This document shows, in pieces, positions 13,001-16,627 of a stretch of 64,000 nucleotides of DNA. The notes below the pieces were generated by a model. That model saw only the letters and a list, made by a program, of their open reading frames with translations, searched no databases and was not told the origin of the DNA. Every line of letters starts with the position of its first letter. The first letter of the stretch is position 1. Made by a program: the position numbers and the translations under genes. This DNA comes from Eledone cirrhosa (Eukaryota): contig OZ024740.1 of assembly GCA_964016885.1 (NCBI GenBank), positions 343,046,001 through 343,110,000 on the forward strand, in the 5' to 3' direction.

Positions 13001-13826
13001 TTGTTTCGACACACGATTTCATAAAAAACCTCGCAAAACTAATTCATCGCCGTTATATATATATATATATATATAACGGATGTTGAGTGAGATGGTTACC
13101 AGTCAGAGTTTAGCTTTAAACTATCTCTGTTATTGTATTAAATATTTACTCTTGATTGGCCAGAGGTGTTTATTTCCAGGTACCTTATGAATTTGACTTT
13201 CCGTATTTATTACTGTTGTGAAATCTTGTGTTTTTTTTGGGTTGTAACTTCTCTGTTTTTTAGCCTAAGAAAATATATATATGCCGATGGATATAATTAC
13301 ATGCATACATTTATTTTCTTTAATTAATTGAGTTCTTTACACGAGGAATTGATATTAGTTTTGAAATAACTAATTAACCCGCGTGTGTTTTATATTTTAC
13401 TCTTAATTCGGCTGGAGATTTACATTCCCATTTGCCCTTTAAAGCATAACTTTCTGTATTTACTGCGGTTATGAGATGCGGTTCTTATTCGGGTACAACT
13501 TCTGATTTTAGCCTAAGAAAATATCTATATGCGTGTGTAATTTATACACGCATATATTTATTTTTTTATTTTCAATTGAGTTCTTAACACGTTGGATTGA
13601 TAATGTTTTCGAAAAAACTAATTAACCCGCGTGTATATTATTTTTTTTCCTCCTTTCGTGGATCGTAGTTGTCTCCCCTTCCCGCTTCGTGTCGCTATGA
13701 TACTTCTTCAGTCAAAAACTGCTGGAATTTCAAATTTGGCGGTCATTCGATGAGGGAAGGAGCAACTTAACAGACACGATTTTTGACTGCGGTAAGAATA
13801 TTTTCTTATATCAAAGTTTAATGGGC

Positions 13827-13951
13827 TTCCACTGATGATTTATAAGCGCCCACCTAAATATATTCTTACATGAATATATATTAGGCTTCTACATAAACTG
13901 GAAATATTTTCCCAACTTGTAGAAAACTTATAATGAAACAATTGTTTGGAA
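13827..13951 (+). ncRNA. Type I hammerhead ribozyme with extended branched stem II (unit 1)
   Basis: ttcca-CTGATGA-t-ttataag...cttataa-t-GAAA-caattg-TT-tggaa; stems I, II and III all pair. Confidence 0.75.
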
Positions 13952-14537
13952 AGAGAGATATACTTTAACTTTAATTATATCTCATAAAATAATACAACTG
14001 GTTTTTCCACATTATACATATTGTTAGCACCCCAAACACTTAAATTGGGTTTATATTTAAATATAACCTAATGTTTGTTGAGTGAGATGGTTACCAGTCA
14101 GAGTTTAGCTTTAAACTATCTCTGTTATTGTATTAAATATTTACTCTTGATTGGCCAGAGGTGTTTATTTCCAGGTACCTTATGAATTTGACTTTCCGTA
14201 TTTATTACTGTTGTGAAATGTGTTTTTTTTTGGTTGTAACTTCTCTGTTTTTTAGCCTAAGAAAATATATATATGCCTATGTATATAATTACATGCATAC
14301 ATTTATTTTCTTTACACGAGGAATTGATATTAGTTTTGAAATAACTAATTAACCCGCGTGTGTTTTATATTTTACTCTTAATTCGGCCGGAGATTTACAT
14401 TCCCATTTGCCCTTTAAAGCATAACTTTCTGTATTTACTGCGGTTATGGGATGCGGTTCTTATTCGGGTACAACTTCTGATTTTAGCCTAAGAAAATATC
14501 TATATGCGTGTGTAATTTATATCAAAGTTTAATGGGC

Positions 14538-14662
14538 TTCCACTGATGATTTATAAGCGCCCACCTAAATATATTCTTACATGAATATATATTAGGCTTC
14601 TACATAAACTGGAAATATTCTCCCAACTTGTAGAAAACTTATAATGAAACAATTGTTTGGAA
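14538..14662 (+). ncRNA. Type I hammerhead ribozyme (unit 2)
   Basis: Same motif with intact core. Confidence 0.75.
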
Positions 14663-15532
14663 AGAGAGATATACTTTAACTTTAATTATATCTCATAAAA
14701 TAATACAACTGGTTTTTCCACATTATACATATTGTTAGCACCCCAAACACTTAAATTGGGTTTATATTTAAATATAACCTAATGTTTGTTGAGTGAGATG
14801 GTTACCAGTCAGAGTTTAGCTTTAAACTATCTCTGTTATTGTATTAAATATTTACTCTTGATTGGCCAGAGGTATTTATTTCCAGGTACCTTATGAATTT
14901 GACTTTCCGTATTTATTACTGTTGTGAAATCTTGTGTTTTTTTTGGGTTGTAACTTCTCTGTTTTTTAGCCTAAGAAAATATATATATGCCGATGGATAT
15001 AATTACATGCATACATTTATTTTCTTTAATTAATTGAGTTCTTTACACGAGGAATTGATATTAGTTTTGAAATAACTAATTAACCCGCGTGTGTTTTATA
15101 TTTTACTCTTAATTCGGCTGGAGATTTACATTCCCATTTGCCCTTTAAAGCATAACTTTCTGTATTTACTGCGGTTATGAGATGCGGTTCTTATTCGGGT
15201 ACAACTTCTGATTTTAGCCTAAGAAAATATCTATATGCGTGTGTAATTTATACACGCATATATTTATTTTTTTATTTTCAATTGAGTTCTTAACACGTTG
15301 GATTGATAATGTTTTCGAAAAAACTAATTAACCCGCGTGTATATTATTTTTTTTCCTCCTTTCGTGGATCGTAGTTGTCTCCCCTTCCCGCTTCGTGTCG
15401 CTATGATACTTCTTCAGTCAAAAACTGCTGGAATTTCAAATTTGGCGGTCATTCGATGAGGGAAGGAGCAACTTAACAGACACGATTTTTGACTGCGGTA
15501 AGAATATTTTCTTATATCAAAGTTTAATGGGC

Positions 15533-15657
15533 TTCCACTGATGATTTATAAGCGCCCACCTAAATATATTCTTACATGAATATATATTAGGCTTCTACAT
15601 AAACTGGAAATATTTTCCCAACTTGTAGAAAACTTATAATGAAACAATTGTTTGGAA
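15533..15657 (+). ncRNA. Type I hammerhead ribozyme (unit 3)
   Basis: Same motif with intact core. Confidence 0.75.
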
Positions 15658-16243
15658 AGAGAGATATACTTTAACTTTAATTATATCTCATAAAATAATA
15701 CAACTGGTTTTTCCACATTATACATATTGTTAGCACCCCAAACACTTAAATTGGGTTTATATTTAAATATAACCTAATGTTTGTTGAGTGAGATGGTTAC
15801 CAGTCAGAGTTTAGCTTTAAACTATCTCTGTTATTGTATTAAATATTTACTCTTGATTGGCCAGAGGTGTTTATTTCCAGGTACCTTATGAATTTGACTT
15901 TCCGTATTTATTACTGTTGTGAAATGTGTTTTTTTTTGGTTGTAACTTCTCTGTTTTTTAGCCTAAGAAAATATATATATGCCTATGTATATAATTACAT
16001 GCATACATTTATTTTCTTTACACGAGGAATTGATATTAGTTTTGAAATAACTAATTAACCCGCGTGTGTTTTATATTTTACTCTTAATTCGCCCGGAGAT
16101 TTACATTCCCATTTGCCCTTTAAAGCATAACTTTCTGTATTTACTGCGGTTATGGGATGCGGTTCTTATTCGGGTACAACTTCTGATTTTAGCCTAAGAA
16201 AATATCTATATGCGTGTGTAATTTATATCAAAGTTTAATGGGC

Positions 16244-16368
16244 TTCCACCGATGATTTATAAGCGCCCACCTAAATATATTCTTACATGAATATATATTA
16301 GGCTTCTACATAAACTGGAAATATTCTCCCAACTTGTAGAAAACTTATAATGAAACAATTGTTTGGAA
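16244..16368 (+). ncRNA. Type I hammerhead ribozyme, core-mutated (unit 4)
   Basis: Core reads CCGATGA instead of CTGATGA. Confidence 0.6.
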
Positions 16369-16627
16369 AGAGAGATATACTTTAACTTTAATTATATCTC
16401 ATAAAATAATACAACTGGTTTTTCCACATTATACATATTGTTAGCACCCCAAACACTTAAATTGGGTTTATATTTAAATATAACCTAATGTTTGTTGAGT
16501 GAGATGGTTACCAGTCAGAGTTTAGCTTTAAACTATCTCTGTTATTGTATTAAATATATATATATATATATATGTATAAAGAAAATAATAGGAAGCTGGA
16601 CTGGTGTAAATCCTTGAAAAGTTTATT

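Follow-up and report, generated by a model that had tools for sequence, protein, structure and literature searches.

The window, a 64,000-nucleotide stretch of the Eledone cirrhosa genome, contains a tandem array with hammerhead ribozymes that we read, with reasonable though incomplete confidence, as one insertion of a young non-coding family with a 1-kb unit, likely copied by the reverse transcriptase (RT) and endonuclease of a Penelope-like element (PLE), with a probable later doubling on the spot that brought two units to four. Judged on its letters, this family is young, non-coding, dispersed genome-wide and equipped with a predicted type I hammerhead. A search of the species' own 3-Gb genome with the hammerhead region returned 2,482 first-look candidates, the best 40 of which are 97-100% alike, and a pattern written for the enlarged hammerhead matched 3,228 times (control 0), with several subfamilies of ~690-1,000 nt. 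Furthermore, a 24-mer near the 3' end gave 1,042 exact genome matches (control 0).

Array anatomy and the origin of four units

The array had been described as four units of 995, 711, 995 and 711 bp plus a short redundancy between TA tracts, and we re-derived the same layout, with unit starts at 13082, 14077, 14788 and 15783, a 63-nt redundancy from 16494 to 16556, and (TA)n tracts at both edges:

13081 to 16556, + strand: whole insertion, four head-to-tail units and a 63-nt terminal redundancy (sequence)
13082 to 14076, + strand: unit 1, 995 bp, the standard unit of the family (other copies 995-1004 bp)
14077 to 14787, + strand: unit 2, 711 bp, equal to unit 1 minus 3, 17 and 264 nt (264-nt junction only in this array)
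14788 to 15782, + strand: unit 3, 995 bp (1 difference from unit 1)
15783 to 16493, + strand: unit 4, 711 bp (2 differences from unit 2, one in the ribozyme core)
16494 to 16556, + strand: terminal redundancy, ending at the fixed 3' end of the family (unit position ~62-67) and merging into (TA)n (82 of 83 insertions)
13054 to 13076, no strand: (TA)n target, left (sequence)
16557 to 16573, no strand: (TA)n target, right (sequence)
13134 to 13646, + strand: internal duplication of ~260 nt (unit 53-317 versus 305-565, 74% alike; sequence comparison)
13514 to 13568, + strand: hairpin module, kept with altered sequence in subfamilies B and C (sequence comparison)

The unit is low in GC (30%), and the longest stop-to-stop frames of the array span 61 and 71 aa without a Pfam match, which agrees with the earlier statement that no credible ORF is present. 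Additional hairpins had also been reported; the TATATGCGTGTGTAA hairpin is indeed whole in the 995-bp units, but it is incomplete in the 711-bp units. PLE remnants had been placed on both sides of the array, whereas we found both flanks to be other abundant repeats, with no PLE domain detected by Pfam in two flank translations. At the 5' junction (13043-13081), (TA)n-ACGGAT is mirrored in the flank ATCGCCGT-(TA)n, which would fit the copying of a few bases from the opposite target strand.

Alignment of the element with its sister subfamilies, B (708 nt) and C (703 nt), extends over the whole unit except for the ~260-nt internal duplication, which accounts for a 1-kb unit here against ~700 nt in the sisters. 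The junction of the 264-nt deletion matched only twice in the genome, both times in this window, which makes 995 bp the unit of the family and 711 bp a local accident rather than the second family monomer proposed at first. Both the 17- and the 264-nt deletion of the 711-bp unit are bordered by 5-6 nt of common sequence.

Units 1 and 3 differ at 1 of 995 sites and units 2 and 4 at 2 of 711, and variants across the four units follow the patterns GTGT, TCTC and AGAG, setting units 1/3 (A) against 2/4 (B). Six substitutions separate A from B units and three separate the two 1,706-bp AB blocks. This A-B-A-B order with nested variants points to duplication after insertion (or in the assembly) and argues against the suggestion of the initial annotation that rolling-circle copying of a single RNA circle gave the four units directly as cDNA. 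Such copying would suit the head-to-tail units, the terminal redundancy and two rare private variants common to all four units, but a monomer circle cannot yield A-B-A-B with the same deletions and variants in alternate units, and a 1,706-nt template requires a source with the 711 junction, of which the assembly holds none elsewhere. We regard this origin as highly improbable.

Comparable nesting was found at other loci. A 4.7-unit array (L101) and a 2.4-unit array (L102) show a nested crossover pattern that indicates local amplification from an insertion of less than two units, while L103 was uninformative. The same crossover-type nesting, expected of real local amplification, speaks against an assembly artefact in which two haplotypes were joined in tandem and the true locus is 995+711+63. 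Only three sites differ between the 1,706-bp blocks and near-identical local duplications occur at other sampled loci (L221, L245/L246, L326), as an artefact would have it, and we consider this explanation unlikely. Among the pieces of four contig runs placed on the locus, none spans the array. In our preferred reading, a later local duplication probably took the array from two units to four, and the long arrays of this family resemble post-insertion duplications. Long retrozyme arrays can arise in this way and should not by themselves be taken as proof of rolling-circle copying.

A predicted type I hammerhead with a branched stem II

Each unit contains UUCCA-CUGAUGA-(96 nt)-GAAAC-AAUU-GUU-UGGAA, with CCGAUGA as the core in unit 4, and hammerheads were sought on both strands of the full 64-kb window, with 5 matches, 4 of them in the array:

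13827 to 13951, + strand: type I hammerhead 1, predicted cut after 13946 (pattern, fold, covariation)
13853 to 13924, + strand: two hairpins branching from stem II, 13853-13885 and 13887-13924 (compensatory changes across subfamilies)
13823 to 13851, + strand: candidate pseudoknot, GGGC 13823-13826 with GCCC 13848-13851 (letters in most motifs)
14538 to 14662, + strand: hammerhead 2, predicted cut after 14657 (pattern, covariance model)
15533 to 15657, + strand: hammerhead 3, predicted cut after 15652 (pattern, covariance model)
16244 to 16368, + strand: hammerhead 4, core CCGAUGA (pattern)

In hammerhead 1, stem I pairs 13827-13831 with 13947-13951, the core consists of CUGAUGA (13832-13838), GAAAC (13935-13939) and a GUU triplet, the stem II domain occupies 96 nt (13839-13934) with U-U at its base, and stem III is palindromic (ACAAUUGU). 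The cleavage site after 13946 is the one predicted in the initial annotation, which had also assigned a complete type I hammerhead to every unit. As to position this is correct, the cores at 13832, 14543, 15538 and 16249 lying at the same place in each unit; as to completeness, the three-helix junction core with an open stem I is intact in three of four units, and we take the CCGAUGA core of hammerhead 4 to be probably impaired. Rfam gave no hammerhead match in the array at the gathering score and none among 32 weak matches, probably because of the 96-nt stem II domain.

RNAalifold applied to 14 sequences recovered stems I, II and III together with the two stem-II hairpins, with two-sided changes in 7 of 32 pairs. 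When 20 sequences were used, 8 of 34 pairs changed on both sides against 1-3 in slid controls, counts that are not probabilities since the sequences are related and come from a handful of subfamilies. Stem III remains self-complementary while changing from ACAAUUGU to ACGAUCGU, and the triplet is GUU, GUC or GUA, never GUG, among the 125 distinct motifs tallied. Moreover, subfamilies that are 70-85% alike agree in core, triplet class and palindrome. By these comparisons, the 96-nt two-hairpin junction of stem II is kept by compensatory changes and is the distinctive part of the element.

GGGC lies immediately 5' of stem I and occurs in 114 of the 125 distinct motifs; GCCC, found in 107 of them, directly follows the first strand of stem II on its 3' side. 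The two could form a stem I-stem II pseudoknot, although two-sided changes in this pairing were absent from the 20-sequence set. For the isolated motif, the active fold without the pseudoknot was calculated to lie 4.6 kcal/mol above the minimum free energy, the inactive fold owing its greater stability to GGGC/GCCC pairing.

A broader interpretation, which we offer only tentatively, would make this a subclass of type I hammerhead in which a 96-nt two-hairpin scaffold takes the part of loop 2 and is docked on stem I via the GGGC/GCCC pseudoknot. It would characterize a radiating clade of RNA circles, 0.7-1 kb in size and with >3,000 motifs, that escapes both Rfam and standard descriptors; the insertion ends of this clade would preserve a record of Penelope reverse transcription with priming inside the circle. 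The existence of a conserved architecture invisible to Rfam suggests that animal hammerheads are undercounted in censuses.

Several other hammerhead-like features were observed. The window holds two short hammerhead motifs of other families at 30912-30955 (+) and 54070-54114 (-), as well as a perfect 27-bp fold-back at 17641-17701 that starts with a CUGAUGA half core. Elsewhere in the genome are hammerhead tandem families with a ~459-nt unit and 50-nt stem II (L052:6400-7400) and with a ~490-nt unit (L061:8068-9553).

Copy ends, the proposed RNA template and a probable helper enzyme

Insertion ends were studied in 83 distinct insertions drawn from the first 100 listed matches of the 3' 24-mer on one contig (C1). 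The 3' end is fixed: in 82 of the 83 it falls at unit position 62-67, at the passage from UAAAUAU into (TA)n, and subfamilies B and C share it, as do most members of a further set of 40 loci. The 5' ends vary, and the flanks are mostly (TA)n. One fixed 3' end combined with ragged 5' ends indicates target-primed reverse transcription, and the Penelope type of mobilisation advanced in the initial annotation is borne out to the extent that copy ends have a reverse-transcription anatomy of Penelope type; non-coding, hammerhead-bearing and dispersed, the element is by these features a non-LTR retrozyme. Head-to-head two-armed insertions are rare, with 1 clear case in 83 (L232) in addition to L102 and L342.

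The fixed 3' end lies 193 nt downstream of the predicted cut, so that the usual template cannot be a linear product of cleavage, one unit long and primed from its own terminus. After curation of ends by hand, 77 insertions were kept, leaving out L246 (a duplicate), L209, L213, L217 and L267 (internal deletions) and L212 (end outside the locus). Of these 77, 56 run through the predicted cut site and 12 are longer than one unit; since most copies pass the cut, their usual template must have been intact there, as a circle or an uncut multimer. In the 34 insertions with overlapping passes (11,860 positions), 147 non-majority letters are common to both passes and 145 sites differ, the shared letters placing both passes in the same subfamily. 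RNA-editing scars were not seen in 228 segments, which have no A>G excess (A>G 66 versus T>C 93, p 0.63).

A minority of 5' ends gather at the predicted cut, with 13 observed against 2.7 expected within unit positions 861-885 (77 curated insertions); the TA-microhomology control of this analysis is weak, junction calls being ambiguous in TA-rich places. On contigs C1-C12, at least 49 junctions fall on the 11 positions from the cut onward, counted by hand among the first 100 of the 141 matches listed, versus 31 on the 17 positions upstream (~2.4-fold, p 6e-5), and 7 lie exactly at the cut among the matches listed. The excess is modest, many junctions also lying just upstream (38 loci). A second cluster occupies unit positions 401-435 (9 observed versus 1.7 expected) and has a weak counterpart at the duplicated module (4 versus 1.4, p 0.06) and only a loose one in B and C. 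In the window it corresponds to 13486-13516 (unit 405-435), just upstream of the conserved hairpin module, and may mark the start of transcription or a stalling point of the RT.

Enrichment of 5' ends at the cut, together with the conservation of core, triplet class and palindrome across subfamilies, argues against a relic hammerhead that does not cut and survives as a structure for protein binding or packaging. The U-U at the base of stem II, the GUU triplet, the very large stem II and read-through in most copies would all fit a relic, as would the self-cleavage of only 1 in 9 retrozyme dimers, the other 8 failing to cut, in the accessible part of 10.64898/2026.07.22.740005. Nevertheless, we find this view improbable.

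More weight belongs to an alternative with the same element and helper in which the copied RNA is a linear multimer, uncut or cut in part, transcribed from tandem source loci, circles having no role in copying. Tandem source loci exist, and it accounts equally well for cut-site read-through, for copy lengths of up to ~1.5-2 units and for stops at the cut on a second pass (L234, L259, L263, L016); a GUU triplet with a weak stem III also predicts slow cleavage (PMC4209133, accessible part). Against it, known animal retrozymes accumulate mainly as circles, according to the portion of PMC7229834 available. The circular fold of cut-to-cut monomers, at -238.6 against -189.3 (sd 8.7) for 12 shuffles, also counts against linear templates, even if hairpins alone could explain this value. 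We hold the linear template to be rather unlikely, and internal priming renders the proposed circle-template step testable.

Coding PLEs are abundant in the genome, as a GIY-YIG search showed, and we looked among them, at 40 PLE loci and others, for a parent of the element. The initial annotation had proposed a search for an autonomous PLE sharing the unit, and none was found: a PLE ORF is joined to the element at 0/30 and 0/40 sampled loci (the latter 40 with ~4 kb upstream), and an RT + GIY-YIG ORF between repeats is absent from the array and the sampled loci. A profile search of all sampled loci gave 338 matches, to sister subfamilies only and to no coding parent. A covariance model run on 67 sources (66 PLE loci) found no strong match tied to a PLE ORF, its one strong locus match, L124, being a subfamily C copy. 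Similarity to PLE terminal repeats, searched in ~65 PLE loci in which families are only sampled, was limited to a shared GAAAC-AATT-GUU stem III. Two candidate parents were rejected: L067 (74% match) is a copy of non-coding subfamily B that inserted separately next to a PLE, and a young coding PLE whose hammerhead has a 91-nt unbranched stem II shows zero homology to the unit. That the unit is instead the terminal repeat (pLTR) of an undiscovered coding PLE, with truncated copies, would agree with its PLE-type hammerhead features (short helix I, helix II of 7-8 bp and palindromic helix III, as in the accessible part of PMC4209133) and with the derivation of retrozymes from pLTRs in that of 10.64898/2026.07.22.740005. 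More than 30 insertions, however, wrap round the unit head-to-tail without an ORF, and an ORF joined at the 5' end occurs in 0/70 sampled loci, making a pLTR very unlikely.

A 778-aa ORF in the genome contains RWK, DKT and CxCX5C, with GIY-YIG at the C terminus, and its copies are 99-100% alike. It belongs to a very young Hydra-type PLE with a 3,510-nt period and 809 candidates (L365:1530-5440, or G000:C340:52031-55936, and L053:7935-8330). The type I hammerhead of this PLE combines an unbranched stem II of 91 nt with a palindromic stem III (ACACGUGU). Another Hydra-type (CxCX5C) family, L108-L132, has a short-stem-II hammerhead with an identical GAAAC-AAUU-GUU stem III, and a mixed dimer between its RNA and that of the retrozyme would in principle be possible. 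Insertion in (TA)n is documented for Hydra elements (PMC8557442, accessible part). By inference only, a recently active Hydra-clade PLE is the likeliest helper. Within the window, PLE coding remnants were detected at 59000-59700 (-) and 61780-64000 (+) by tblastn with PLE proteins from other loci, and long matches to another RT-type repeat at 43750-50080.

In the mechanism that we propose, tandem copies would be transcribed and two hammerheads would pair via their palindromic stems III, with a slow cut after GUU, as the triplet and weak stem III predict. Cut-to-cut monomers would then be ligated into circles, as in known retrozymes. The helper, most likely of the Hydra clade, would nick (TA)n and prime 193 nt downstream of the cut, a position observed in the copies. 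Copying would usually cross the cut and could pass the priming site again, which requires a circle or an uncut dimer, while a minority of copies would stop at the cut as on cleaved RNA. In the window, a two-unit insertion would have lost 284 nt in its second unit and aged before the 1,706-bp block was duplicated.

Comparison with known retrozymes and Penelope-like elements

The class and its PLE link are already published, whereas the branched hammerhead architecture is unmatched in the literature searched: a search of mostly open-access main texts returned no cephalopod retrozyme and no comparable branched-stem-II hammerhead. Units 1-3, as well as L101-L103, can be assigned by their sequence features to the metazoan non-LTR retrozymes. 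Like these, as described in the accessible parts of PMC7229834 and 10.64898/2026.07.22.740005, the element is non-coding and low in GC, occurs as tandem or solo units that each carry one type I hammerhead, lacks LTR, PBS and PPT, and has thousands of copies in a genome that also holds PLEs; the axolotl HHR_Amex2 (PMC7229834) likewise has U-U at the base of stem II. It differs in its 995-nt unit, against a reported 170-400 nt, in its 96-nt branched stem II and in occurring mostly as 5'-truncated solos that share one fixed 3' end. Size, put forward earlier as considerably above the typical, is hardly a novelty, since published retrozyme consensus lengths are 51-972 bp with a search period of <=1,000 bp (10.64898/2026.07.22.740005, accessible part) and 995 nt barely exceeds this maximum.

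Compared with the minimal PLE hammerheads in the available text of PMC4209133, the element has a similar helix I (4-5 bp) and helix II (7-8 bp), no canonical loop 1-loop 2 letters and a palindromic helix III predicted to need a dimer. Here, in contrast, a two-hairpin junction replaces loop 2, the G10.1-C11.1 pair is missing and no ORF lies between repeats. As in the pseudoknot-stabilised hammerheads of PMC3088659 (accessible part), a base-paired stem I-stem II contact is possible (GGGC/GCCC), but in our element it is without covariation and lies within a multibranch loop.

Finally, the insertions have the anatomy of a non-autonomous PLE, with a fixed 3' end, variable 5' truncation, partial tandems and microsatellite targets. 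Relative to the MRC1 and Hydra PLEs in the accessible part of PMC8557442, 3'-end similarity to coding families was not found, an additional end 30-40 nt beyond the first is missing (1 of 83 ends lies elsewhere) and two-armed insertions are rare. The element nevertheless resembles MRC1-like non-autonomous and Hydra-clade PLEs in its 5'-truncated, partial-tandem, head-to-tail and occasionally inverted insertions, and it shares with the Hydra clade both (TA)n targets and hammerheads.
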